Source of the DNA: a virus | Lineage: Duplodnaviria > Caudoviricetes | DNA length: 64,000 bases | Virus record (IMG/VR): IMGVR_UViG_3300001525_000075 | Coordinates: 1 to 64,000 of that record | Direction: 5' to 3' (one strand) | Shown: piece after piece, positions 33,703-51,589 of the stretch | Numbering within the stretch: position 1 is the first letter of the stretch | Layout: each line of letters begins with the position of its first letter | Made by a program: the position numbers and the translations under genes | The notes under the pieces: model-generated | What the model saw: the letters and a program-made list of their open reading frames with translations, nothing else | What the model was told of the DNA's origin: nothing | Database searches by the model: none

Positions 33703-35373
33703 ATGGAATTTGTAACAAAATCAAATTTAACTAAATATACCACTTATCTAAATGAATATTTAAAGAAATATTATTAGCATTTAGATATTAATGGGTATCA
33801 ACAACAACCTAATATTACTGGAACTACTGTAGGAACATCAGGTAATGATAATTATTTAAGAGCTTCTATTCCTACAGGAACTACAGGTGAAAATTCACCC
33901 AATTGGTATTATGCTACTGATGGTAGTTTGTAGGATATTAGTACTAAAACTGTTGCTTCTGCTGATAAATTGAGTAATACTGTTAAAATATGGGGTAACG
34001 ATTTTGATGGTAGTAGTGATATTGACGGGGATATAACAATTAACGGTTCTATTATTGCATCCGACTCGCAATTAATTGACCTTGGTCTCACAAGTGGTAC
34101 ACTTTGGATGGACAGAAATGTAGGTGCAAGTAGTCCAGAAGATGCAGGTTTATATTTTGCTTGGGGTGAAACAACTGGTTATACTGCTGATGAAGTTGGT
34201 AAGACAAAACAGTTCAGTTGGGATGATTATAAGTATGGAAATAGTCTGACTAAGTATAATAAGACTGATGGTTTAACCACTTTGGAAACTACTGATGATG
34301 CGGTATTGCAGAATGTGCATAAGTACAGTATGCCTACTAAGGAGCAGATAGTTGAGCTTATCAAGGAAACTGATGTGTATTGCATTAAGGCAGATGGCAC
34401 TGAAGTACATGGCACATATCAAGAAGGCACTGGTGCAGGTGGCCGAATGATTGCTTGGGATAGTGAAATCGGTGATGATGAGCAGCTTAACGGTATTGAG
34501 TTTAGAAAGAAAACGGATAATTCAATCAAGGTTTTCGTTCCTTGTGCAGGCAATGGCTATGAAGGCTCTATGTACGATGTTGGCTTGAGTTGTTTCTTGT
34601 GGGCTAGCTCTTTGAATGGGGATGGTCCTTACGATGCTTGGAGCTTGGGCTTCTATTACCGTGGTGGCTACTGTGTCAGCGGCAACGGTCGCTGTATCGG
34701 TCTTCCTGTGCGAGGTGTGGCAACACCAGTAGAAGGTTCTAAAACATATACTCTTCCTTCATCAAGTGGTACATTAGCTTTAGACAACGTAGCTAGTACA
34801 ACCTCTAATGGATTAATGAGTTCTGAGGATAAAACTAATTTAGATGATCATTTAAAAAACTATGATAATCCTCATAAAGTCACTAAGAATCAGATAAATT
34901 TAGGCAATGTAGATAACACATCAGATTCTTAGAAAAATGTATTATCTGCAACTAAATTAACTACAGTAAGAACCATTTGGGGACAATCGTTTGACGGAAC
35001 TGCTAATATTTCAGGTGATGCTACATATTTAATGAGCATTAATAATTCTGATGGTGATTCTGTTACTAGTATTAATAACGAACCTTCTAATACTAATCAT
35101 TTTATACAGTTTGGTAAATAGAATCGAGATTATGTATTATGGAATGAATACGGAGGGATTTGGAAATTTAATAGTGGAACCAACGGGGCTAATTTCCTTG
35201 TTCAATTAGGAAATACTAATTATTTTGCTAATAATATAGGTGTTGGAACAAGTTCTCCTTCGGAATCTATTCATACAACAGGAAATGTAAAAGCTTCTGA
35301 ATATAAATTAACTGATGGTTCTGTTTACGCTGAACCTAGTACTACTGATGACATAAATACTTTGTTTGAATGA
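33703..35373 (+). CDS. Tail fibre protein with internal CLec-fold domain (556 aa, code 15)
   Basis: TAG at 33775, 33931, 34930 and 35119. Contains IDLGLTSGTLWMDRNVGA...YFAWGET...GLPVRGV flanked by IWGxxFDG fibre repeats. Confidence 0.8.
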
Positions 35374-37355
35374 AATATGTATCTAAAGACAATCTGACAC
35401 AATATGATTCTTTAATTAAAGAATATATTAAAAATAGAACTCAAGATATTGATGATATTTTCAGTTATGGTGTAACTTGGAAAGTTAATCAAGCAGATCC
35501 TCATGTTACTAGAATAGGAAATATGAATTATCACAAAACTCTTCCTATTCAAAGTAATATGAGAGGATGTATTGTTCAATTTACAAGTGGTAAACCTTCA
35601 GTTCAATATTATTTAAATCCTGATGATTGGAGATTTATGCCAAGTGGTAAAGCTGTGACAATTACAAGCTATACTAGAACTGATAATACTATAACAAATA
35701 CTACATATTTTTCAGATCATAAATATGAATATTCTTGGATTAAATATTATAATTCAGATAATTCAAGTTATACTGAAATGTGGATTGGTAGTATTGATAT
35801 TAGTACAGGTACCGCAACATTATATGCTGATGAAGATAAAAATACTATAGATGACTCAGTTTGGTTAAGTTCAAACCCTAAAATAGAATTGGGAACTTCT
35901 CTTAATGGATTTGACGGTCAGGTTATGGTAGAAATTCCTGAATTTTGGATTAAATCTAAACAAACTGATACAGATAATGAAGTTAGAATTTATACTGCGC
36001 CTGTAGTTGAAAATTTAACGCATTAGAAGAAATGTTATCTTGCAGCATATCACATGAGTACTTTAAATAGTGCTGTAACGAATTGGGGTTATCTTAGTAC
36101 ATTTAAATCATTTCCTGTTGGTTTAAGTATTAAAAATTATAATTCTGCTTGTAGAGGTGGAAATCGTAATACACATTATGAAAATACTAATAGATATAGA
36201 TGTACTTTAGGTAAACCTGCAACAAGCTATAACCGTACTCAAGTTAGAACATATTGTAGATATAGTAATATTGAGAATATGAACTATGTTCAATACAAAA
36301 ATATATTGGTTTGGTTATGGGTTATTGAATATGCTAATAGATACTCACAAGAAACTTTTAATTCTTCCTTGACAACTGAAGGTTATCATCAAGGAGGTAT
36401 GGGAGCAGGTGTGTCAATAGTAGGAAATTGGAATTATTTAAATGAACAAAATCCTTGTATTACCAATGGATTTACTGATTCGTTAGGTAACAATTCAGGT
36501 TATATTACAGCTACTATTCCTTCGTTTGATTATACAAAATATTCTATTTGGTTTAATTCAATGGCTACAAATGGAAATGTTGTAGTATCTAGTAACGGAA
36601 GTAATAATTCTAAAGTAATTACTCAAGTGAAAGCGGTTACTAATTATGCATTTTATCATAATCCTGATAATGTTTGGGGAACTACAACTTATGTTATTAG
36701 TGGATTAACTGATGGACAAAGTGTATATTTCAGAGAAGGAAGTGGATTTACTACAGCTAATACAATATTAGAAGTAACTGAAGATGGTACTTATGACGTG
36801 TCTTGGCAAGGTTATAATACAGGTGGACAGAAGGGGGTATCTTTTGGTAAAGAACAAACTAGTTGTAATATTACAATTTATAATTCTAAACAAACAACAG
36901 CTGTTGTAACACAATCTCAACAAACTGTTCAAGTACCTAGATGGAGAGGTATAGAACAACCTTTTGGTGATATTTGGAATAGTATTGAAGGTGTTGCATT
37001 TGTAGTAGAAAATAGAAAAAAGAATATGTATTATACTACAGATCCTGACAAATATGTTGATTCTAATTTCTCTACAAATATGGAATTTCATGGTGAAATT
37101 CCACAGACTTCATATTGGATTTCTGAAATTGATTTATAGGAGAGCGCAGAAATAATTCCTAAAGCAGCTTGTAATAGCTCTAATACTTATTATACAGACT
37201 TTATTTGGGGGAATAATTCTACTAGTTGTGGTTTGTTGGTGGGTGTCAACGCCTGGGACGGGGCTCAGGGCGGCCTTTTCGGTTTCTTTTCGCGTTTCGG
37301 CGTTGGTCTTTCTTGGTCGCTTGTCGGGTTTCGCCCTTCGTATGAACTTTCATAA
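35370..37355 (+). CDS. DGR target protein (receptor-binding protein with C-terminal CLec variable region; 661 aa, code 15)
   Basis: Reads through TAG 36024 and 37137. Motifs GQVMVEIPEF, RWRGIEQPFGDIW and C-terminal GLLVGVNA..G..GGLFGF.S..GVG.SWSLVGFRP; the 3' end carries the VR. Confidence 0.88.
37227..37339 (+). repeat. DGR variable repeat (VR)
   Basis: 113-bp copy at the 3' end of the target gene; 100/113 identical to 37487-37599 with no gaps. Confidence 0.9.
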
Positions 37356-37397
37356 AACTGTTTTGCTGAAAATTAAATTTTTAATTTTATTGTAAAA

Positions 37398-37429
37398 TTT
37401 GTGTATATCTCGAAAATATAATACCTTAG
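37398..37429 (+). promoter_or_regulatory. Possible Bacteroidota-type promoter upstream of TR
   Basis: TTTG (37398-37401), a 20-nt spacer, then TAccTTAG (37422-37429), one mismatch from the TAnnTTTG consensus. Confidence 0.3.
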
Positions 37430-37486
37430 TAAATGTGAGTTAATCACACGGTTGCTACTGACAGTAAACTTGTGTCACATCAAAAG

Positions 37487-37599
37487 TGTGGTTTGTTGGT
37501 GGGTGCCAACGCCTAGAGCGGAGCTCATTGCGGCCTTTTCGCTTTCTATTCGCATTACGACGTTGGTCGTTCTTGGTCGCTTGTCGGGTTTCGCCCTTC
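37487..37599 (+). repeat. DGR template repeat (TR) position; adenine-poor
   Basis: Non-genic second copy (in-frame TGA at 37436) between the VR and the RT. 7 of its 10 adenines are substituted in the VR, but 6 further mismatches are at non-A bases. Confidence 0.8.
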
Positions 37600-37725
37600 C
37601 TAAAAGTAGTCTATAAAAATCGTTACCGTAGGGTTAGATAAGTGCAGTAGAACCTTACCTCTTGGTAAAAAATAAAGTTTACAGTGGGTGTAGATCCTAG
37701 TAGAGAAATCGAAAGGGTGTTAAAC
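37600..37725 (+). ncRNA. TR 3' spacer (sp) structured RNA element of the DGR
   Basis: Hairpin TTACC-TCTT-GGTAA (37655-37668) followed by an A-tract. It resembles the CCTTGCCTCTTGGCAAAAA element I recall downstream of Bacteroidota DGR TRs. Confidence 0.5.
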
Positions 37726-37804
37726 ACTACTTCAATAATATATAATTAAAAAATAGACTACTTTAAGACAATTCATTTTATTAACTAAATAAATTTTAAA
37801 AGTT

Positions 37805-39064
37805 ATCAAGCGCATTGGTAATTTAATGCCTCGTCTATGTTACACTTGGAATCTAGAAAATTCAGATTTACAAGCAAGAAGAGGTAAAAAATGTAAGAGA
37901 GCTATAATTGAACATTCACTTGTAGCTGATGAACACTATAAGGAGTTAATAAATAAGTTTCAAACAGGAACTTATAAAACATCTCCTTATAGTCTTTTTA
38001 AGATATATGAACCCAAGGAACGTATTATTTATAGACTACCATATTATCCTGATCGACTGACACACCATGCAATTATGTCAGTCGTGAAGGATTTATGGAT
38101 TAAACAATTTATACCTAATACTTACAGTTGTGTTCCGGATAGAGGAATTACAAAAGTGGTTCATGATTTAAAAAGAGATTTATATAGATATGAATGGAGA
38201 ACAACTTATTGTTTAAAATTAGATATAACTAAATTTTATCCCTCTGTTAATCATCAGATTCTAAAAGATATTCTTGCTAAAAAGATTAAAGATAAACAAT
38301 TTTTAGCATTACTTGGAGAAATTATCGATTCGGTTAATGATTATGTTCCTCAAAAAGGAACAGGAATTCCAATAGGTAATTATTTATCTCAATATTTTTC
38401 TAATCTTTATTTGACTTATTTTGACCGATGGTGTAAAGAAACTTTACATTGTAGATTTTATTATAGATATGCTGACGATATAGTGATACTATCGGATAGT
38501 AAAGAATTTTTACACAATTGTTTGAAACAAATCAAAGAATATTTAAAAGTTAATCTTAAACTCACAGTTAAATCAAATTATTAGGTGTTTCCTGTTGAAG
38601 CTAGAGGTATCGATTTTGTTGGTTATGTATTTAGACATAATTACATAAAAGTGAGAAAGAAAACAAAAAAGAAAGTAATGCGTTTAGTTACCGCATTTCA
38701 ACATAAGAAAATATGTAGAGATGTAATGTTTGATCATCTTGTAGCGTATTTAGGAATATTAAAATATGCTGACAGCAAGCATCTTCTAAAGAAAATTGAA
38801 GATATTACTAAAGTTCGTTACTCTAATTTCAAAGGTAAGTTAGATAAAATTTCTAATTTTTATAATAGTGATTTAACCTATGTTATAGAGGCGATAGGAC
38901 ATCACAAGTATTATACCGTTAATTTTACATATAAATGTAAACCTTATACAGTAAAAAGTAGAAATGTTGATCAATGGTATGAATTAAAATGTGATATGAA
39001 ATTACCTGAACTTTATTCTTTTAAAAAACATGAGAAACCCAATTATACAAAAGTTTCAAGATAA
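37805..39064 (+). CDS. DGR reverse transcriptase (code 15; probable ATC start)
   Basis: Motifs (M)KRIGNL, YEPKERII, PDRLTHHA, LKLDITKFYPS, GIPIGNYLSQ (DGR IGxxxSQ signature), YRYADD and KSNY(Q)VFPVEARGIDFVGY. TAG 38582 joins the two track ORFs. Confidence 0.95.
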
Positions 39065-39386
39065 ACCTGATACATTTATTGATTTAGGAACTGGCGATTG
39101 GTATTATAATTATAATATTAATCAATGTGCTATGACAGTTTTTTCTAATATCGAATCTACAGAAGTATTCTCTGAAACTCCTGGATATGAATTTATTCAA
39201 GTTCGTATTTCAGGAAGACCTACATATGAAAAATGTGTAAGAGCGATTATTAGAGAGTATGTTACTATGGATGAAGAATTTGATCTTATTAATTCTTATA
39301 ATAGAGATAATTCTAATGAAGAATATAAAGAATATCTTAAACTGTTAGAAGAAATTAAATCAAAAGTTAGAAAAGATTTTGATTAA
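39030..39386 (+). CDS. Hypothetical protein overlapping the RT 3' end
   Basis: Track ORF overlapping the RT by 35 nt and followed by a terminator. Confidence 0.75.
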   Translation: MRNPIIQKFQDKPDTFIDLGTGDWYYNYNINQCAMTVFSNIESTEVFSETPGYEFIQVRISGRPTYEKCVRAIIREYVTMDEEFDLINSYNRDNSNEEYKEYLKLLEEIKSKVRKDFD

Positions 39387-39415
39387 TCTAAAATAATAAT
39401 TTAATTTAACACCAT

Positions 39416-39453
39416 AAAACCTCGGAATCTTAGGATTTCGGGGTTTTATTTTT
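39416..39453 (+). terminator. Intrinsic terminator ending the tail-fibre/DGR transcript
   Basis: 14-bp stem AAAACCTCGGAATC / GATTTCGGGGTTTT (two G-U pairs), TTAG loop and a T-rich tail. Confidence 0.8.
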
Positions 39454-39587
39454 ATATTTATTAAAATTTTGTTTTATAATAATTAAATCATATATTGGAG
39501 GAGTCATGACAAAATCGAACTTATAAATTTTAATCAGATAATTATATAACAAGATTTCATTAGTTTAACATTTTTAATTTTTATTTT

Positions 39588-40493
39588 ATGTCTGATAGTA
39601 AAGTTTTTATGTTTCCTGAACAAAGTAGTAATTCAGGAATCATGTCTATGTTAGCTCCGTTGTTATAGCAAAAAGGAGTTGATCCTAACGTGTTATTAGC
39701 TATGAGAAACAACTCAGGTTTTGGAGGTGAAGGTGGCTGGTTCATGTGGGTAATTTTCTTATTCTTCCTTATGGGATGGGGAGGAAATGGTTGGAACGGA
39801 TTGGGAAATAGAGGTACTGAAGGTTTAACAAATCAAATTAATAATGATTATGGAAGAGACCTTTTATTACAGGCTATTAACGGAAATGCCACAGCTATAT
39901 CTCAATTAGCTACTACTCTTAATTGTGATGTTAATGCTATTCAAGATGCAATTAATTCTGTAAATTCTAATGTAAGTAATGTAAGTAATCAAGTTGGATT
40001 ATCTAGTCAACAAGTAATTAATGCAATCCAAAGTGGTAATCAAACTATTGCTGCACAAATGGCACAATGTTGCTGTGATAATAAATTACTTGTTACTAAT
40101 CAAGGATATGAGTCTAGAATAGCAACGTTAGAATAGACAAATCAATTAGGATCTAAAGTAGACGCAGGAACAAGTCAAATTACTAATGCTATTGCAAATT
40201 AGACTGCACTTATTAATGATAGATTTTGTGCATTAGAATTGCGTGATATGCAAGCTAAGATTGACGCTTTGCAAGAAGAAAAGAGTACTTTACAAAATCA
40301 TATAAGTAATGCTAATCAAACTACTCAAATTCAATCTTATATCGCAAATGTAGTTAATCCTATTGCACAAGAAGTTAATGCTATTAAATCAGCATAGCCT
40401 GCTACAGTAACATTACCTTATAGTTGTGCAACTGCTGTCCCAACAGCTTTAGCTTATCAACAAGGTTTAAGTACTTAGGGTTTATGGTATTAA
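39588..40493 (+). CDS. Gly/Trp-rich hydrophobic-segment plus coiled-coil protein (301 aa, code 15)
   Basis: GFGGEGGWFMWVIFLFFLMGWGG followed by a Gln/Asn-rich coiled coil with AQCCC; ATG 39588 to TAA 40491. Confidence 0.8.
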
Positions 40494-43545: not shown

Positions 43546-46500
43546 ATGATTATAGCGAATTTTGTTAGCAATCGTCCCACAATGTCTGAGACGAGAACTT
43601 ATGAGGACTTTTACAAATTTTTGGGTATGTGAGTGCCACTTTATTTAGTAATAAATAATAGTAACTATGTGAAACGGAGAAACCCTCCATTACAAAGGGT
43701 AATTCCGTAGGAAACTTTGACATAAAGGACCTCTAACGAATAGAGATTTGCTTTTAAATAATCCGAATTCACGGAAATATGGAATTAAGGAAAAAATCAA
43801 TATTGATAGCTTTAGTTATTGGTGACGGAACTATTAATTATCAAACTAAAGTTATTAAAGGAAAAACATATAAATACGCTAATTTAGAAGTCAATCATTC
43901 TTATAAACAATTAGAATATTGTAAATGGAAAGCTAATTTATGTAAATCTATTACTGGAAGGAAATGTTTAATACGCTACAAACACGTTCCTGAAAGAAAA
44001 ATAAATAATCGGATAACTAAATCTACAGAAGCTTGTAGATTTACTTGTTGTCACAGATATTTTAGAATTTTACGAAAGTGGCTTTATCCTAATAATAAGA
44101 AAAGATTAACTTCTAAATATTTAAAGTATTTAGATGAACAAGGTTTAGCAATTTGGTATATGGATGATGGTTCTTTATATGTAAGACCTGATAAATCCGC
44201 ATTTAATTGTGAATTACATACTCATATTCCTAAAGAAGACGCAGAAGATTTAATTTTAATGTTTCAAAACAAATGGAATATTAAATTTAATTTACATCAT
44301 GTTGGTGAAAATCAATATAATTTGAGATGTTGTTCTTATGCTGGTGTTAAATTTATAAAATTGATTTCTCCGTTTGTACCGCAATGTATGGATTACAAAT
44401 TAAAAATTCCTGAAAGATTTCTCCACGAGTGCATAGTACCCTAATTATAGGGTAATGATATATTCTAAACTAACAAGATGGCAAATTGTTAGAACTATAG
44501 GATAAAGAGCCTATAGGATAATATTATTGACTAAGCCCCATAAGTTGGGTGTAGTTTCACGTCTATACCCTGAGTTAACAGCTTCCTATCTTACTGAATC
44601 ATTGAGAAATATCTTTTATCAAGACCGTAAGTCTAATAACAAGTATCAATCAATTGATTCTATGTATCATTTTTAAAATCGGTACATATTAAATTCTCTG
44701 AATTGCTGGAATGTCTTTTAGATAATCAGCAGCTAAAATAAAATGTTCAACGACTAATCGAAAGATGTAATGTATAAAGTAATAAAAACTGTAAATGTAA
44801 AAACGGATGATTATTATCTTGGAATTATTTATTCTGAGAAAAATTCGTTTGATGGACAACTTGGAAACGGAGTTAACATAAATGACCCTATGACTTATCA
44901 ATTTAGTAAAACTAAATTTCAACAACAAGTTAAAGAGTGGGGTGTTAAATCCTTTAAAGTAGAAGTATTAAAAGAATATGATTCTTTAGAAGAAGCACAA
45001 GAATATTTAAATATAAAACTTACTCCTAAAGAAGTAGCTACTAAAGAGTGTTTAAATAATACTTATGCTGACAAGTTATATGAAGTATATGTATATGATA
45101 ATACAGGTAAATTTGCTAATAGTAAAATATTAGTAGACGCTGACACTGCATTTAATGGATTAAAACTTGATAAACAATATTTAAGTTTTTTATATGATGA
45201 AAAAGGATTCAGTAAAGCCAAGAAGATGCAGATTCAAAATAGACCTGTATATAAGTATGATATAAATGGAAATTTTATTTGTTCATACGAAACTCAAGTA
45301 CAAGCTGAAAAAGATAATAAATATAGTAATATTACTAAATCAATTAAACTTAAACAAGCTTGTAGAAATGGATTTTATTGGACTCTTCAAAAACTACCTA
45401 AATTATATTGGAAGAATCGTAAATGGGTTCAAGTTTATGATTCTCATTATAAATATATTAGAGGTTATAAGTTTTTAAAAGAATGTCAAAGAGTAAAAGG
45501 ATTTGAAGTTCGTGATGTAATGAATAAAAATATGTTATATGATGGATGTTTTTACTTTTATAAATGAAGTAGAGAATACTGAAATGTAATGATATAGTCT
45601 AATCTTAATAGAAATATTAAGTATTAATGTTTGAGTGGGAAGTTGAAACGAATTACATCAAGCGTGTTGAACTCGCTGATACTCCCCAAGGAGATGGCTC
45701 AAACGGTTCTGAAATTGAGTTTGCGTTTAAGGAAAGATATTATGAAAAGTATGATATTTTCAAGCATGACAAGACTATGCAACAATTTATGGTTGTAAGT
45801 CGTCCTATTCGTAAAGCAGACAATTACTGGGTAGTCACCTGTCGTTTAATTGATAGTGACTATTCTTCTAGCATTGATCTTAACGATTATTCTATTGGTG
45901 ACACCACTAGATTCCAATCTAATGCAATGCCTGAATTACACGAGGAAGGTAAACTTAACATATTAAAAAGAATTTACATTGCTTTCCTCCGTTAAGTTAT
46001 TAACTTAATGAATAATTAAAATAAAATTCTTAATTACTGGAAAGCCTATATTGGTAATCAGTAGCGAAATCTCAACTTTTACAAAAGTTCTGAGAAACGT
46101 TCAACGACTAGTCTAAAAGACGTAGGAGAAATGAACTCCGAAATGGAATAAATCTAACTTAAATACAATGAAATATATATAGTATATCAAACAGTAAATA
46201 AAGTAAACAATAAAATTTATATAGGTGTCCACGGAACAACTAATCCTAACGAATTCGACGGTTATATTGGAAATGGAGTTTTGATGGAGTAAATGAAGCG
46301 GGAAGATATTTGAATCCTAAAGCAATTGGTGCAGGACATTTACCTAGAGCAATTAAAAAAGGTCACCAATTTTTAGGACATCAATTCTCATACGAAAAGC
46401 TTCCATCTATGAAGAAATTAAAACATAGAAACGTAACTACTGTCGATAAACCTTATATTGGAGGAAAAATTGGAAGATATAATGATAATGGAGAACTTTT

Positions 46501-49500
46501 AGAAATTCTTCCGAATATGACTGAATGTGTTAAAGCAGGATACAAGAATGCTAAACAAGTAGCATTAGGAAAACGACAACATTGTAAAGGATTTGTATTT
46601 AAGTATTTAGATTAAGATATAGTCTGAACAATATTGAAAAGTATTGAATAACATAATTGTATGTAAAATATCAAAGTAATATTGAGCGTCATCGCAATTA
46701 TATTACTACTCACCGCGTAAATAGAGTAGTAATATTAGAATAATTATCGACTGCGCAAGATTATTAATAAAACAGATTAATCTGAAATAGTAATAATCAA
46801 TATCTTCTAAATTGCTGGAAAGTTCTTACTAATCAGCAGCCAAAAAATAAAAGGTTCAACGATTATCCAAATGGAGTAAAATTATGAAAAGGAAGATATA
46901 TAATATAAATATTAAATGAAATATATAGTATATTTAACAACTAATACACTTAACAACAAAATTTACATAGGAGTACATAAAACTGAAAATCCTGATGTGT
47001 TTGACGGATATATCGGATGTGGAGTTAATATGTGTTATCCAAGTAGTTACACAGATCCTAAAACTCCATTTCAGCACGCTGTTAAAAAATATGGAATTAA
47101 GAGTTTTAAGCGATATGTTTTACAAATTTTTGACTCTGAAGAAGAAGCTTATAATTTGGAATCAATTTTAGTAAATAAATCTTTTATCGCAAGAAATGAT
47201 ACATATAACATATCATTAGGAGGAAATAAAGGAAATTATTTATTTCCTATAAACCAATTTAATAAAGATGGAAATTTTATCAAATCTTGGGATAACATGC
47301 TTGTTGCATCTGAAGCTTTGGGCGTATCACATACTAGTATTAATAATGCTAAATTGTTTAAAGTAAGTTGTTTAGGTTATTTTTGGTCTACAGATTCATT
47401 TATTAATATAAAAGAATATAGTTATCATGTTGGAAAAAATGTTTATAAATATACTAAAAATGGCGAGTTAATAGATTCTTACGAATCACTGACTAATGCT
47501 GCTAAAAGTAATAATAGTTTAGAAAAAACTATATTTAGGTCGATTCAATCAAATATTCAAGTTCAAGGATTTTATTATTCATTTACACTTGTAGATAAAT
47601 TTATTCCTAAAAAATTACCTAGTTTAAAAGGTAAAATTGTATATATTTACGATTTAAACGGAAATTATCTAACAAAAAAAGAAAGTGGATCTGAATTAAA
47701 AAAATATTATAATGTAAAATCTTACGGTTGTTTAAGGCAAGCCCTTATTACTGGGAAACCTTATAAAAACACACAAGTTTCTTTAGAATTTAAAGATAAG
47801 TTAAATCCTGTAGAATCTTCAACTAATAAAGCAAAACGCATAGGTGTTTATGATTTAAATGGAAATTTAATAGAAGAATTTGAATCTATAAAATCTGCTT
47901 CTAGAAAATACGGGAGTTGTGTGTTTAGAGTACTCAATCATCGACAAAAACAATCTAAAAATTTAATATTTAAATATTTATAATTATATAAAGATATAGT
48001 CTATTTTGAGACGATAGTTATTCAGCCCTCTACGCTGCTCATGAGAACCAATTTATCAGTATTGCCGAAGGTAAAGACCAAGGTTCTCTTACTGAAACCA
48101 TCTATAAAATGCAAAAGAAGGAAAAGACTCTTCTCGACAATTTCCTTTATGTGCGTAATAATGGCTTATTATTTAATAAGTGTAATGTTGATGTGAACGG
48201 TTAGTGTTTAGCCGCATAATAAATAATTTATTATGAAAACCTTTTGAATTGCTGGGAAGCCTGTGATGGTAATCAGCAGCTACTTTAAAGAAATAGAGTA
48301 GTTCAACGACTAGAAACTATTAGGTAATTTAATGAATAAATAGATTCATATATTATAATTTAATAATCAAATAGGATTATATGGAATTAACAGAAGAACA
48401 AAAAAGCTTATTGCTAGCGTTGTGTATAGGAGACGGTTGTTTACGAAAACCTCATCCTAAATCAGGAAATGTTCAACTAGAAATTGCTCATTCTACAAAA
48501 CAAGAAGAATACTGTAAATGGAAACGTGATTTAGTTTATAGTATTTTTGGAGGAAAAAGAATTCCTAAAATAGGATATAAAACAATAAAATTAAAAAATA
48601 GAGATAAGGAATATAAAGCATGTAGGTTTACTAAATCTCATCCTTATTTCTTATACTTAAGACATTTGTTATATCCTAACAATGTGAAAGTTATGACTAG
48701 AGAAATATTAGATAAGTTGACATTACAAGGTTTAGCAATTTGGTACATGGACGATGGTTCTTTTTACAAAAAAGATAACGAAGATGGAACTAAATCTATA
48801 TGCTTTGATTTAAGAATTTCAACTGATTCTTTTTCTTATGAAGAAAACGTATTAATATGTGATTTCTTTAAAGAAAAATATGGTATAAATTTTTATCCAT
48901 ATAAAACACATAAAGAAAAAGAACATAGTTGGGTTTTAAGAGCTAATAAACAAGCTGCTATAAAGTTTATAAATTTAATTAAACCTTATGTTATTCCTTC
49001 AATGAAATACAAAATAGAATATAAAAGTTAATAGTTTCCAAGAGTAAAAGGCAACTTTAAAATTAAAGTTGAAGATATAGTCTAAACTTATACGAAATTA
49101 GAAGTATAAGAATTACAGGATAAAGAGCCTGTAAGATAATATAATTGAAGCCCACAATCAGCGATCCTGATACAGGTAGACCTAAACATTGAGTATAGTA
49201 ACTTAATAAATGGGTCGAATAGATGTAAATCTATTTATAAATAATTTTCTTTAATTGCTGGAAACTCTTATTTAAGATAATCAGCAGCTAATTTTTACAT
49301 ATAGTAAGCATTAATAATGTAACTGTAAAAAAGTTCAACGACTAGGTTTTAACCGTACATCTATAAGATGGAAATAGGAAATAACTTAAAGTAAAAGTAT
49401 AAAACTTATGAAGTATGTAGTATACTTAACTACAAACAAAATAAATAATAAAACTTGTGCAGGTTTTAAATGGAGTTATGAAAAATCAAAAATGATTTTG

Positions 49501-51589
49501 CCTTACAAAAAATCTAATATAAAACCTGTAAAAATAGCGCAATACGATTTAAATCATAAGTTAATAAAAATTTGGAATTCTGTATCTGAGTGTAAAAAAG
49601 AATTTCCAAGTTGTCAAAAAGTTTGTAGAAAAGAAAGAAAAACTTCAAAAAATTTTATATTTGAATATATAAGTTAAAGATATAGTCTGCTCTTTATAGT
49701 AATATAAAGATAACAAAAGAATTTATATAGGTGATGGTATCATACCTCAAGTTGAGCGTTTTGCATCTAAGTATGCTTTCGCTAAGTTAACTATTGAGGT
49801 ATTCCATACTGTAATTGCTACACTTAATGAAAAAGCTTCTCAACCTACTGGTAATCACTATATGTTTATATGCAACGAACGTATGTGGAACCTCATTCAA
49901 CAAGTTCTTGGCGATTATCTCGCTAAGTTCAAGACTGATGGTACTTATCTTTACTCTAAGGCTGCTAACGGCTATGTAAAGGTGGGCGCAACGTTTGATT
50001 CATATGAATACGGTGGAAATAGTATTACTTTTAAGGTTGATCGCACATTCTCACGTGAATATGGCTTTGAAAAAGGCTACTGCCTTTGCCTTGATTTAAC
50101 TGCGGATTAGACTTCCGCAGAACCTCCTATTTAAATATCTAGGTAGGAGTTAAAAATAACTTCCTAATTGCTGGAAACTCTTATTTAAGACAATCAGCAG
50201 CTAAGTATTAGAATATGCAAACTTTATAAGTAGCTCTAATAAAAGTTCAGAGGCTAGTTACGAAACTTAAATTATTAAAATAATAATTGAAATGGAAGAC
50301 AAATTTAAATATATAGTATATTTAACTACAAATCTTGTAAATAATAAAATTTACATAGGAGTACATAAAACAAAAAATCCTGAAGTATTTGATGGGTATC
50401 TTGGATGCGGAGTTAAAATATCTGACAGATCGACTTATAGATATTGTCATACTCCATTTGAATCAGCTGTTAATAAATATGGACCTTCTAAATTTAAACG
50501 AAAAACTTTAAAAGTTTTTAATAAATTAGAAGATGCGTTAGATCTTGAACGACGGCTAGTAGATTCAAACTTTATTAAACGTAAAGATACTTACAATGTA
50601 ACCTTGGGTGGAAATTTACCTCCTACATCAAAAAAAATTATATATCAATATTCTTTAAAAGGATCTTTTATAAAAGAATGGGATTCTATAACAGAAGCGT
50701 CCATTTTCTATAAATGTAGTTCTTCTTCTATCGGAAAAGCTATATTTGATAGAACACCTAGTCGAGGTTATTTATGGACAGATTACAAATATGAATACAT
50801 TGATATAAATAATTTTAGAATTAATACAAATAAACATACTTGCTATATATATGATAGTTTGGGAAATTTTATAAATAGTACAACTTCTATAAACGAAGCT
50901 GCAAAACTATATAATCTTTCTTCAGGTAATATTTCTAACGCTATATCTGGCAAATATTGTGTAAACAAACAATATTATTTTTCTTCAGTTAAATATACTA
51001 AATTCCCAATCCCTGAAAAAATTTCTTATGATGACGGCTTTTATATGTATGATTTATCAGGTGTATTTATAAGACATTTTAAAACAATATCTGAAATACA
51101 AAAGTTTTTTAATACTAAACGAGTAAGCTCTGTATATAGAGCTATACGAACAGGAAATACCGCTTTTAATTATCAATGGAGTAATAAAAAATTACAAAAC
51201 ATGAAAGAATTAAAAGTTTATAATCAAAAACGAAAAGTTGGAAAATATAGCTTAAACGATGAACTTTTAGAAGTTTTTGATACAGTAAGAAGTGCGAGAA
51301 AAATAGCTTCCGGTGTTCCACAAGTGTTAAAAGGTCAAAGAAATACGGCAGGAGGTTATAAATGGAAATATATAGAATAAATTTGAAGATATAGTCCAAA
51401 ACTCAGTAGATGTTTACTTTGAAAGGGGGTGACTTCATCTCTAACAAGTACCTCGGTGTTGGTGGTGAAGATGGACTCAGCTCAGGTGTTGTTTCAAGTC
51501 CTGTTGCTGGTTCTAAGCTAATTAACTGGGGTTACAGTGGTGTAGGTGTATTTAATCCCTACAGATCTTTCATTTTGCGTGAAATTTGA
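43546..51589 (+). CDS. Major capsid protein, spliced from 8 exons (473 aa, code 15)
   Basis: Exons 43546-43626, 44530-44667, 45630-45950, 46660-46718, 48009-48201, 49148-49183, 49721-50131 and 51407-51589 total 1422 nt and give one continuous frame: MIIANFVSNRPTM...FLG|TKPHKLG...SMY|FEWEVET...HEEG|YVKYQS...HRV|DDSYS...DVNG|KPTISDPDTGRP|IYIGDGIIPQVER...PPI|QMFTLKGG...FILREI. Confidence 0.9.
43627..44529 (+). mobile_element. Group I intron 1 of MCP (903 nt)
   Basis: Preceded by U and ends in G; P7 GAATA (43738) / TATTC (44461); LAGLIDADG ORF in L8. Confidence 0.85.
43779..44444 (+). CDS. LAGLIDADG homing endonuclease (intron 1)
   Basis: LIALVIGDG and LAIWYMDDGS motifs. Confidence 0.9.
   Translation: MELRKKSILIALVIGDGTINYQTKVIKGKTYKYANLEVNHSYKQLEYCKWKANLCKSITGRKCLIRYKHVPERKINNRITKSTEACRFTCCHRYFRILRKWLYPNNKKRLTSKYLKYLDEQGLAIWYMDDGSLYVRPDKSAFNCELHTHIPKEDAEDLILMFQNKWNIKFNLHHVGENQYNLRCCSYAGVKFIKLISPFVPQCMDYKLKIPERFLHECIVP
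44668..45629 (+). mobile_element. Group I intron 2 of MCP (962 nt)
   Basis: AATTGCTGGAA / AATCAGCAG core; P7 GACTA (44752) / TAGTC (45595); terminal G. Confidence 0.88.
44770..45567 (+). CDS. Divergent GIY-YIG/NUMOD-type endonuclease (intron 2)
   Basis: YKVIKT...YYLG...FDGQLGNGV is alignable by eye to the intron 4 and 7 ORFs; has VYKYDINGNFI NUMOD1-like repeats. Confidence 0.65.
   Translation: MYKVIKTVNVKTDDYYLGIIYSEKNSFDGQLGNGVNINDPMTYQFSKTKFQQQVKEWGVKSFKVEVLKEYDSLEEAQEYLNIKLTPKEVATKECLNNTYADKLYEVYVYDNTGKFANSKILVDADTAFNGLKLDKQYLSFLYDEKGFSKAKKMQIQNRPVYKYDINGNFICSYETQVQAEKDNKYSNITKSIKLKQACRNGFYWTLQKLPKLYWKNRKWVQVYDSHYKYIRGYKFLKECQRVKGFEVRDVMNKNMLYDGCFYFYK
45630..45950 (+). CDS. Major capsid protein exon 3
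   Basis: FEWEVETNYIKRVE...SNAMPELHEEG; corresponds to most of track ORF 45627..45995. Confidence 0.85.
45951..46659 (+). mobile_element. Group I intron 3 of MCP (709 nt)
   Basis: AATTACTGGAA / AATCAGTAG covarying P4; P7 GACTA (46106) / TAGTC (46620); terminal G. Confidence 0.88.
46168..46615 (+). pseudogene. Degraded GIY-YIG endonuclease (intron 3)
   Basis: An extra AT dinucleotide after ATG 46168 shifts the frame off IVYQTVNKVNNKIYIGVH. Stop at 46290; C-terminal NUMOD fragment at 46310..46615. Confidence 0.8.
46719..48008 (+). mobile_element. Group I intron 4 of MCP (1290 nt, phase 2)
   Basis: Core motifs present; P7 GATTA (46861) / TAGTC (47997); splice GT|A reconstitutes a Val codon. 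Confidence 0.88.
46916..47983 (+). CDS. GIY-YIG homing endonuclease with NUMOD1 repeats (intron 4)
   Basis: YIVYLTTN...KIYIGVH, AVKKYG..SFKR, EEEAYNLE. Confidence 0.88.
   Translation: MKYIVYLTTNTLNNKIYIGVHKTENPDVFDGYIGCGVNMCYPSSYTDPKTPFQHAVKKYGIKSFKRYVLQIFDSEEEAYNLESILVNKSFIARNDTYNISLGGNKGNYLFPINQFNKDGNFIKSWDNMLVASEALGVSHTSINNAKLFKVSCLGYFWSTDSFINIKEYSYHVGKNVYKYTKNGELIDSYESLTNAAKSNNSLEKTIFRSIQSNIQVQGFYYSFTLVDKFIPKKLPSLKGKIVYIYDLNGNYLTKKESGSELKKYYNVKSYGCLRQALITGKPYKNTQVSLEFKDKLNPVESSTNKAKRIGVYDLNGNLIEEFESIKSASRKYGSCVFRVLNHRQKQSKNLIFKYL
48009..48201 (+). CDS. Major capsid protein exon 5
   Basis: DDSYSALYAAHENQFISIAEGK...NNGLLFNKCNVDVNG. Confidence 0.85.
48202..49147 (+). mobile_element. Group I intron 5 of MCP (946 nt)
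   Basis: AATTGCTGGGAA / AATCAGCAG; P7 GACTA (48308) / TAGTC (49078); terminal G. Confidence 0.88.
48381..49031 (+). CDS. LAGLIDADG homing endonuclease (intron 5)
   Basis: LLALCIGDG and LAIWYMDDGS motifs. Confidence 0.9.
   Translation: MELTEEQKSLLLALCIGDGCLRKPHPKSGNVQLEIAHSTKQEEYCKWKRDLVYSIFGGKRIPKIGYKTIKLKNRDKEYKACRFTKSHPYFLYLRHLLYPNNVKVMTREILDKLTLQGLAIWYMDDGSFYKKDNEDGTKSICFDLRISTDSFSYEENVLICDFFKEKYGINFYPYKTHKEKEHSWVLRANKQAAIKFINLIKPYVIPSMKYKIEYKS
49184..49720 (+). mobile_element. Group I intron 6 of MCP (537 nt; atypical junction)
   Basis: Core motifs present; P7 GACTA (49340) / TAGTC (49683); IGS ATAAATGGGTC (49206-49216) pairs both exons. The junction may be shifted by one base (49183-49719). 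Confidence 0.82.
49408..49677 (+). pseudogene. Internally deleted GIY-YIG remnant (intron 6)
   Basis: MKYVVYLTTNKINNK is fused directly to a C-terminal NUMOD1-like segment; the YIG and catalytic part are missing. Confidence 0.75.
49721..50131 (+). CDS. Major capsid protein exon 7
   Basis: IYIGDGIIPQVERFASKY...LDLTAD(Q)TSAEPPI; contains TAG 50108. Confidence 0.85.
50132..51406 (+). mobile_element. Group I intron 7 of MCP (1275 nt)
   Basis: P1 CTCCTATT / GGTAGGAG (50142-50149); P10 ATATCTA / TAGATGT; P7 GGCTA (50252) / TAGTC (51392); terminal G 51406. Confidence 0.9.
50292..51380 (+). CDS. GIY-YIG homing endonuclease with NUMOD1 repeats (intron 7)
   Basis: YIVYLTTNLVNNKIYIGVHKT, AVNKYG..KFKR, DALDLE. 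Confidence 0.88.
   Translation: MEDKFKYIVYLTTNLVNNKIYIGVHKTKNPEVFDGYLGCGVKISDRSTYRYCHTPFESAVNKYGPSKFKRKTLKVFNKLEDALDLERRLVDSNFIKRKDTYNVTLGGNLPPTSKKIIYQYSLKGSFIKEWDSITEASIFYKCSSSSIGKAIFDRTPSRGYLWTDYKYEYIDINNFRINTNKHTCYIYDSLGNFINSTTSINEAAKLYNLSSGNISNAISGKYCVNKQYYFSSVKYTKFPIPEKISYDDGFYMYDLSGVFIRHFKTISEIQKFFNTKRVSSVYRAIRTGNTAFNYQWSNKKLQNMKELKVYNQKRKVGKYSLNDELLEVFDTVRSARKIASGVPQVLKGQRNTAGGYKWKYIE
51407..51589 (+). CDS. Major capsid protein exon 8
   Basis: (Q)MFTLKGGDFISNKYLGVGG...GVFNPYRSFILREI, ending at TGA 51587. Confidence 0.85.

Follow-up and report, generated by a model that had tools for sequence, protein, structure and literature searches.

An adenine-depleted, VR-like template repeat in the DGR of a crAss-like phage

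The template repeat (TR) of a diversity-generating retroelement (DGR) carried by a crAss-like phage has lost most of the adenines that its relatives retain, and the change is both specific to adenines and confined to the TR. The variable repeat (VR) in the adjoining target gene has a common history with this depleted copy, which we refer to as TR'. The explanation that we consider probable, although well short of certain, is that already-mutagenised sequence entered the TR slot, by VR-to-TR conversion or as mis-homed cDNA, that this depleted TR afterwards acted as template for the VR on one or more occasions, and that the pair has since drifted with homing rare or stopped. The locus lies within a 64,000-nucleotide stretch (the window) of IMG/VR record IMGVR_UViG_3300001525_000075. 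This parent record comprises ~79 kb and is ~45% complete, leaving ~55% of the genome missing. For comparison we used eight related elements from other, independent samples, two outgroups, and one further relative, the ninth, in which the TR is truncated.

Organisation of the locus

The element is a crAss-type, avd-less DGR with the layout target-VR-TR-RT (Table 1), and the phage reads TAG as Gln, with TAG codons present within the TR and VR frame. As is characteristic of DGRs, the VR occupies the target gene's 3' end and a non-coding TR sits beside the reverse transcriptase (RT) gene. This layout is shared by the eight relatives, whose flanks are 92-96% identical to those of the window and whose RT genes are 86-93% identical; RT identity to the two outgroups is 56%. 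The window carries a divergent allele of the whole TR-RT module (RT dS is 0.35, compared with 95-99% identity in the flanks), and the exact ancestor of the module is therefore unsampled. The target protein matched PHROG 5302 'tail protein' (E 1e-53), and its gene shares 95-96% nucleotide identity with the 661-aa targets of relatives. We found no Pfam or PDB sequence match for the target C-terminus, and an AF2 model of its last 208 aa had a pLDDT of 37.5, too low for use. On our own reading, and by layout alone, the VR motif G..W..GA..G.F...S...G..SWS..GFRP resembles CLec VRs.

Table 1. Features of the DGR locus, in window coordinates
Feature	Position	Strand	Remarks
DGR target gene, tail protein	35370..37355	+	Single 661-aa ORF, open under TAG=Q; TAG as Gln at 36024-36026 and 37137-37139
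Variable repeat (VR)	37227..37339	+	Codes C-terminal 37 residues preceding ...SYELS; 4 A left
Short inverted repeat ATGAA-CT-TTCAT, candidate homing hairpin	37342..37353	+	3 nt 3' of VR; overlaps stop codon
Scrambled patch, immediately 5' of TR'	37460..37486	+	Substitutions and indels, not adenine-specific
TR slot, adenine-depleted VR-like copy (TR')	37487..37599	+	10 A versus 29-30; both flanks orthologous to relatives' TR flanks
TR-RT spacer (DGR RNA)	37600..37825	+	Closing stem 37603-37614 with 37755-37766; core 37651-37727
Scrambled patch, 16-37 nt 3' of TR'	37615..37636	+	Removes first spacer hairpin CTTATC/GATAAG, conserved in relatives
DGR reverse transcriptase, 412 aa	37826..39064	+	Single ORF; TAG=Gln at 38582-38584

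The RT is intact and under purifying selection. It matched Pfam RVT_1 and PHROG 1423 (E 1.6e-99), had more than 7000 homologues, and carries the motifs IGNYLSQ and YADD, as expected for the DGR clade ((I/L)GxxxSQ, YxDD); its conserved N-terminal motif extends upstream as far as ATC at 37805. The protein agrees with 93 of the 99 columns conserved at 95% or more, A13S being the sole window-specific deviation. Its dN/dS is 0.146, and a test for relaxed selection (0.146 versus 0.09) was non-significant (p = 0.14). The core of the spacer is identical across the five close relatives aligned, save for one substitution in L008, and matched Rfam RT-17 below the gathering score (26.9 bits versus 40.4, E 0.008). 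The closing stem of the spacer RNA is 12 bp long and the alignment offers no covariation to count. The counterpart in relatives of the inverted repeat 3' of the VR is ACGAA-CT-TTCGT, which amounts to one compensatory pair; this 5-bp AT-rich repeat had no energetic support (z = -0.7). No PF05635 (Avd) match was present in the 79-kb record. Avd is generally absent from lineage-3 and crAss-like DGRs (PMC7290462), indicating that it is not required in this subgroup.

Adenine loss in the TR and its shared history with the VR

The VR and TR align without gaps at 100 of 113 positions, and their thirteen mismatches fell exactly where an earlier, sequence-only reading had listed them, seven of them on adenines of the TR and six on its C, G or T bases. 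As that reading had stated, the TR has just 10 A; its other bases are 28 C, 34 G and 41 T, and the window overall is 37.5% A. The final 30 nt of the two repeats are identical, with divergence beginning at 37340 (VR) and 37600 (TR). We identified no other VR/TR-type repeat pair, and no third copy, in the 64-kb window or the 79-kb record, and no second copy was found for a possible fossil VR at 34500-34740. Polarising the mismatches by means of the relatives leaves both counts standing and alters what they represent. The adenine at 37560 is a derived G>A change in the TR, with the VR retaining the ancestral G, and ancestral adenines underlie only two of the six non-A mismatches (37518 and 37569). 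The remaining four, at 37506, 37528, 37529 and 37542 (C>T, T>G, T>G and C>G), are changes confined to the VR, at sites where there had never been an A.

VR/TR differences in DGRs fall essentially at TR adenines, which holds for just seven of the thirteen in the window, whereas relatives and outgroups have 0-2 non-A mismatches. Mismatches at TR adenines make up 19-24 of 19-26 in the close relatives, and 19/19 and 14/14 in the outgroups; against the relatives' mean of 0.4-0.5 non-A mismatches per pair, the six in the window are highly unexpected (Poisson P ~1e-5). Differences between TR' and the VR are nonetheless still concentrated at adenines, occurring at 7/10 A sites versus 6/103 non-A sites (p = 5e-6). 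The wider spread of differences is explained by corruption of the template, not by a different mechanism.

The same 113 nt contain 29-30 adenines in the eight close relatives and 28 in the two outgroups, and the ninth relative, with its truncated TR, agrees with this A-rich pattern; adenine poverty is thus not a family trait. The sequence-only reading had taken the TR-slot copy to be already mutagenised and both copies to descend from a lost A-rich template. This is directly supported by the relatives, in which such a template persists, with 19 variable codons and nine AAY codons in the orthologous TR slot, versus one AAY codon in the window, whose TR departs from the A-rich, stable form typical of DGRs. 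The window TR is 78% identical to that of the relatives, the window spacers being 92-95% identical. Compared with the relatives' consensus, the TR has changed at 21 of 30 ancestral A sites versus 3 of 83 other sites (Fisher p = 6e-13). Once changes had been assigned to the window branch by polarisation, the proportion of adenines altered was 69% for the TR, compared with 2% for both spacers, 3% for the target and 6% for the RT. We tested for spill-over of adenine mutagenesis into the TR flanks or the RT gene and found it to be absent, the adenines of both flanks being untouched.

The depleted copy resembles the product of mutagenesis in both extent and spectrum. TR' has lost a fraction of its adenines (0.70) equal to that changed by a single pass in the VRs of relatives (0.66-0.80, mean 0.73), and its substitutions are VR-like (12 to G, 5 to T and 4 to C). 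Eight usable codons remain in TR', and the diversifying power of the element is down about a trillion-fold at the DNA level relative to an adenine-rich template. The VR carries 21 of the 24 derived states of TR', when ~10 are expected by chance and the VRs of relatives share 9-12 (P ~1e-8), indicating that the depleted copy, and not a hidden A-rich one, templated the VR. Moreover, the window VR has changed at 26 of the 30 ancestral A sites (66-80% in relatives' VRs), for which a two-pass history predicts a loss of 0.93 and a one-pass history 0.73.

Origin of the depleted template

In the reading that we favour, a copy that had already been through one round of adenine mutagenesis would have taken the place of the A-rich TR, most likely in a single event; this copy would have originated either from VR-to-TR gene conversion or from TR-derived cDNA that integrated in the TR rather than the VR. 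This replacement would have removed seventy percent of the TR adenines. The depleted TR, with its 10 A, would then have served as VR template at least once, giving six canonical A-to-N differences and a VR with 4 A. Afterwards, approximately seven ordinary substitutions would have arisen across the two repeats, more than 10 times the number in relatives, suggesting that homing is now rare or stopped. What we infer from these patterns is that there was one event, by which molecular route it happened, and that homing later slowed. There is precedent for the route in the engineered 'TR self-mutagenesis' that results from coupling DGR cDNA to recombineering (bioRxiv 10.1101/2025.03.24.644984), and in crAssphage LMMB, where IMH and IMH* are identical and avd is lacking (PMC7290462). 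Several observations sit less easily with this reading. TR' differs from the VR at ancestral A sites 37518 and 37569, which needs later TR changes or a second hit, the four VR-only non-A changes fit no homing model, the scrambled patches on either side of TR' are unexplained, and one event is inseparable from many small ones.

The main rival is a gradual, selection-driven loss of adenines, in which point mutations were fixed singly, each hard-wiring the best current VR nucleotide, with no reverse flow. Theory predicts just such a progressive loss of TR adenines toward the best-adapted nucleotide in a stable environment (bioRxiv 10.64898/2026.02.18.706561), and the TR' states match the VR. Single steps are also seen in relatives at 'always-G' sites, the adenines that every VR turns into G for scaffold residues (A>G at index 11 in L007, L010 and L011, and at index 45 in L062), and all eight of these adenines are gone from TR' versus 13 of the 22 hypervariable ones. 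However, gradual loss requires 21 fixations at 30 sites, whereas L004 and L008, whose RTs are dS 0.45 apart, lost 0/29 adenines; this amounts to a rate jump of more than 20-fold. It would further have to accommodate a lost fraction that coincides with that of one-pass mutagenesis (0.70 versus 0.73) and two to three hits apiece in four codons, and no intermediates were seen. We therefore regard gradual loss as unlikely, while taking it seriously. Overwriting of the TR by its own mutagenised cDNA, which the sequence-only reading had put forward, is indistinguishable here from VR-to-TR gene conversion or from gradual loss; its other three proposals fared less well, as follows.

Were the true TR A-rich, a VR variant from a diversifying population might have been threaded into the TR slot, as the contig comes from metagenome assembly and DGR loci contain repeats and are heterogeneous. 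A second assembly of the allele could not be found, the TR-RT module being unique in the collections searched: IMG/VR scans with the RT protein and two TR-junction patterns gave only the window's own record, possibly itself left out of the scans; the 48 matches from a JGI metagenome scan with the TR junction were all due to chance, with no BLAST similarity; an exact look-up of the window's 361-aa target fragment returned no match; and the downstream 118-aa ORF is a singleton cluster. Nevertheless, derived states lie within ~10 nt of both TR boundaries (index 9; index 99/101), so that any k-mer of at least 21 across either junction must join unique TR flank to mutagenised sequence, and with an A-rich TR the VR and TR ends would share just 9 and 12-13 nt. 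The TR-slot copy also departs from the assembled VR at 13 sites, keeping ancestral states where the VR changed. We consider such a chimera very unlikely, principally on these k-mer grounds. More remote still is a real template located elsewhere, in the ~55% of the genome that the record, about 45% complete, leaves unsequenced, or in a co-infecting relative, with 37487-37599 as a second non-coding target or relic. If one A-rich template had supplied two targets independently, these should have ~10/24 states in common, not 21, and the copy occupies the orthologous TR slot, accompanied by the RT and a conserved spacer RNA; relatives and outgroups have one TR, adjoining the RT, in the loci fetched, and 79 kb of the phage hold no third copy. 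Least probable of all is an RT that, in the window lineage, misincorporates at non-adenine bases. It could account for the four VR-only changes at never-A sites, T>G recurs in relatives' VRs (twice in L006, and in L062 in the same Cys codon), and 23% of surveyed DGRs show non-A-to-N differences (PMC5758913). A promiscuous RT could not, however, have made the TR poor in A, the RT of this family shows high specificity for A (with a mean of 0.5 non-A mismatches per pair among relatives), and A13S is the only window-specific deviation at conserved RT columns. Misincorporation would be a minor contributor at most, limited to those four sites.

Comparison with known systems and implications

The DGR model holds that the template is invariant and that information flows strictly one way, from TR to VR. 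The closest known systems are arranged like the window: crAssphage LMMB, whose RT is the nearest GenBank relative of the window RT (49-51% aa identity), and other lineage-3 avd-less crAss-like DGRs have, where the tail gene cluster ends, the order target-VR(IMH)-TR(IMH*)-RT, without avd (PMC7290462). These are described with an A-rich TR, whereas that of the window is adenine-depleted and VR-like, and the window phage recodes TAG. The DGR of Bordetella phage BPP-1 (mtd-VR, avd, TR, brt) has in common with it adenine-specific, mutagenic TR-to-VR homing, which targets the C-terminus of a tail protein with a receptor-binding role. Integration in BPP-1 needs only short terminal homology (PMC3240598), and the TR is held invariant via IMH/IMH* differences and a GC-rich hairpin (PMC3240598, PMC5703328). 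The window, in contrast, has no avd, only a weak AT-rich inverted repeat, identical VR and TR ends over the last 30 nt, and a TR that appears rewritten.

In the literature searched we found no description of a natural corrupted DGR template; what it offers is self-mutagenesis in an engineered system and a theory that predicts the loss of adenines. The former (DGRec, bioRxiv 10.1101/2025.03.24.644984) likewise returns mutagenised cDNA to TR DNA and depletes its adenines, but is artificial, requiring an added single-strand annealing protein and a block of mismatch repair; the 79-kb record of the window phage contains no RecT/ERF homologue, which at 45% completeness is uninformative about recombinases. 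The latter (bioRxiv 10.64898/2026.02.18.706561) likewise has TR positions that are either A or the best current nucleotide and a DGR that becomes progressively inoperative. It assumes slow ordinary point mutation, whereas the window data fit a single one-pass event at least equally.

We raise, as a tentative but real possibility, that DGR templates are not safely one-way, and that in nature an element's own mutagenised product can be rewritten into the TR. Each such hit would take away ~70% of the adenines still left, a ratchet that would give DGRs a built-in route to self-extinction or to 'freezing' of a successful receptor. If true, the locus would represent an intermediate stage, its depleted template having remained in use, and avd-less DGRs of the crAss type with identical IMH and IMH* may be particularly susceptible to template rewriting, a susceptibility that could go some way to explaining why so many incomplete DGR cassettes are reported from crAss-like phages. 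With the ancestral template known from sister phages and a rewritten one in the same slot, this locus would offer a natural test case for template integrity, DGR lifespan and the origin of 'non-A-to-N' mismatches.

Repeat pair and gene context

The variable repeat (VR) at the 3' end of the DGR target gene and the copy in the template-repeat (TR) slot beside the reverse transcriptase (RT), henceforth referred to as TR', align without gaps at 100 of 113 positions. The alignment, adenine count and mismatch list of the sequence-only reading were borne out: TR' has 10 adenines and the VR 4 (A makes up 37.5% of the window), and the 13 mismatches comprise seven at TR' adenines and six at other bases. 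The window and the full 79,143-nt IMG/VR record (CheckV completeness 45%) contain no other such repeat pair.

Features of the DGR region and its surroundings (window coordinates)
Feature	Position	Description	Match or motif
Tail-fibre gene	33830-34994	unrelated to that of L004
Fibre-gene end, neighbour of target	34500-34740	adenine-poor, VR-like
Target gene	35370-37355	single 661-aa ORF with TAG = Gln	PHROG 'tail protein', E 1e-53
VR	37227-37339
Scrambled patch upstream of TR'	37460-37486	no adenine bias
TR'	37487-37599
Scrambled patch downstream of TR'	37615-37636	no adenine bias
Conserved spacer core	37651-37727		Rfam RT-17, sub-threshold (26.9 vs 40.4 bits, E 0.008); RT-18, weaker
RT gene	37826-39064	single 412-aa ORF	IGNYLSQ and YADD present
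Repeat families D1, D2, D4, D5	43546-51589

The RT is intact, as had been claimed earlier: in addition to the motifs in the table, 93 of 99 highly conserved columns are kept (canonical relatives share five of the six deviations), and its dN/dS of 0.146 is not significantly above the 0.09-0.10 found among relatives. Its closest GenBank matches are RTs of crAss-like phages, LMMB among them (49-51% amino acid identity). The LMMB DGR, like that of the window, has the order target-VR-TR-RT and lacks the accessory gene avd, and its sequences at the VR end (IMH) and TR end (IMH*) are identical (PMC7290462); no Avd homologue was found in the record of the window's phage. The N-terminal motif M-K-R-x-G-x-L of RT homologues appears as I-K-R-I-G-N-L (37805-37828), in frame upstream of the ATG at 37826, with ATC at the homologues' Met site here and in the related loci L004 and L008, which suggests that the RT either starts at ATC or starts seven codons late.

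The phage genetic code reads TAG as Gln, and the template of this family, followed in the frame of the VR, has TAG at two sites (window 37514-37516 and 37574-37576). The first is kept, and read as Gln, in the VRs of L004, L006 and L008, and the second is always TGG in VRs. No second copy or template of the VR-like fibre-gene end was found in the 79-kb record.

Adenine loss from the template repeat

Related loci, all from other samples, were reached through the RT 90% cluster and the target cluster; L004-L011 come from ENA and Logan assemblies, and the TR of L062 is truncated. All share the architecture of the window. At the nucleotide level their target bodies are 95-97% identical to it (87% in L008) and their RT genes 86-93%; the spacers reach 91-95% (VR-TR) and 89-92% (TR-RT), but the TR only 77-79%. 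The complete TRs of these relatives carry 29-30 adenines in 8/8 cases, and their VR/TR pairs differ at 19-24 TR adenines and 0-2 other sites (repeat positions 0-111). In two outgroups, L060 and L061 (RT identity 56%), the TR has 28 adenines and every mismatch falls on one (19/19 and 14/14, respectively). Because outgroup and relative TRs share adenines at homologous positions, which fixes the direction of change, the ancestral TR was A-rich.

Relative to the consensus of the relatives' TRs, TR' is changed at 21 of 30 ancestral A sites and 3 of 83 others (Fisher p = 6e-13). With changes polarised by L004 and L008, the window branch altered 69% of TR adenines and 3-5% of non-A TR sites; adenine change was 2% in each of the spacers, 3% in the target body and 6% in the RT gene. 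The changed tract is bounded by positions 9 and 99, where the repeat has its first and its last adenine, and does not extend beyond them. Both the fraction of adenines lost (0.70) and the substitution spectrum (G 12, T 5, C 4) match one homing round in relatives' VRs (0.66-0.80 lost), and adenines of Gly, Trp, Ala and Val scaffold codons that are G in every VR have become G at 8/8 sites. Translated in the VR frame, TR' looks like a viable VR. These comparisons point to TR' as an adenine-mutagenised derivative of the ancestral A-rich TR, supporting the sequence-only claim that the copy in the template slot was already mutagenised; A-rich counterparts were present in relatives and outgroups alike. 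Of 19 variable codons in the ancestral template 8 remain usable, and computed diversity falls from ~1e18 to ~1e6 DNA variants and from ~1e16 to ~1e5.4 protein variants.

Possible routes to a depleted template

The window VR carries 21 of the 24 derived states of TR', compared with 9-12 in relatives' VRs (Poisson-binomial P ~1e-8), and therefore copying ran either from the depleted template, or the form directly before it, to the VR, or from the VR to the template. This sharing, together with the lack of a further copy in 79,143 nt, argues against the earlier suggestion that the true, A-rich template lies elsewhere. A foreign template, supplied by another phage, likewise gained no support at this locus. 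A chimeric assembly, also proposed earlier, is unlikely, as an A-rich TR would share just 9 and 12-13 nt with the VR at its ends, below the usual assembly k-mer, and derived states lie within ~10 nt of both TR boundaries. Since TR' and VR differ at 7 of 10 TR' adenines vs 6 of 103 other sites (p = 5e-6), and adenine loss in the VR (26 of the 30 ancestral sites) exceeds that of every relative and comes near the two-pass expectation of 0.93, the depleted TR' probably served as VR template at least once.

The mechanism of template corruption is an inference, and three routes agree with the data. VR-to-TR gene conversion would account for the 'selected' look of TR' and for a tract coextensive with VR/TR homology. 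Alternatively, cDNA from the TR may have integrated into the TR, followed by selection; this has an engineered precedent in DGRec 'TR self-mutagenesis'. Integration needs only ~8 bp of terminal homology (PMC3240598), directionality normally depends on the IMH and hairpin (PMC5703328), and both elements are weak or indistinct in this DGR family. Stepwise adenine loss by point mutation under selection also fits the data: theory predicts it, and single steps occur at always-G sites in relatives (position 11 in the L007 group, position 45 in L062). However, L004 and L008, although farther apart in the RT (dS 0.45), retain all their adenines, and the loss in TR' equals the fraction removed by one pass, which together favour a single event over gradual loss. 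No intermediates or closer relatives of the window allele were found.

The TR' surroundings have also changed. The downstream scrambled patch eliminates the first spacer hairpin, which close relatives keep perfectly across dS 0.45. Between flanks 95-99% identical to L004, the entire module at 37.2-39.98 kb represents a divergent allele (RT dS 0.35). Identity to L004 is 81-97% per 200-nt block across the TR-RT-downstream module, with 68% at 38,986-39,185, and 95-99% in neighbouring genes; the region that includes 33830-34994 and 37200-39980 is a mosaic. Among 15 billion proteins, the window's downstream ORF clusters with no other sequence.

Present state of the DGR

When polarised by relatives, six of the 13 mismatches are canonical A-to-N changes, three arose afterwards in TR' (37518 A>G, 37569 A>G and 37560 G>A) and four are VR-only changes at never-A sites (TR coordinates 37506, 37528, 37529 and 37542). 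T>G changes at non-adenine template positions recur in the VRs of L006, L062 and the window (positions 10, 41, 42 and 50), with an identical Cys codon changed to Gly in L062 and the window, and the RT may add to the remaining mismatches through a T>G error mode. The six non-A mismatches of the window pair exceed the relatives' mean of 0.4-0.5 per pair (Poisson P ~1e-5); as each homing event wipes such differences, the pattern is most simply read as homing that is now rare or halted, with both repeats drifting. The locus is a genuine DGR; its lineage is known, and its state is unusual and informative.
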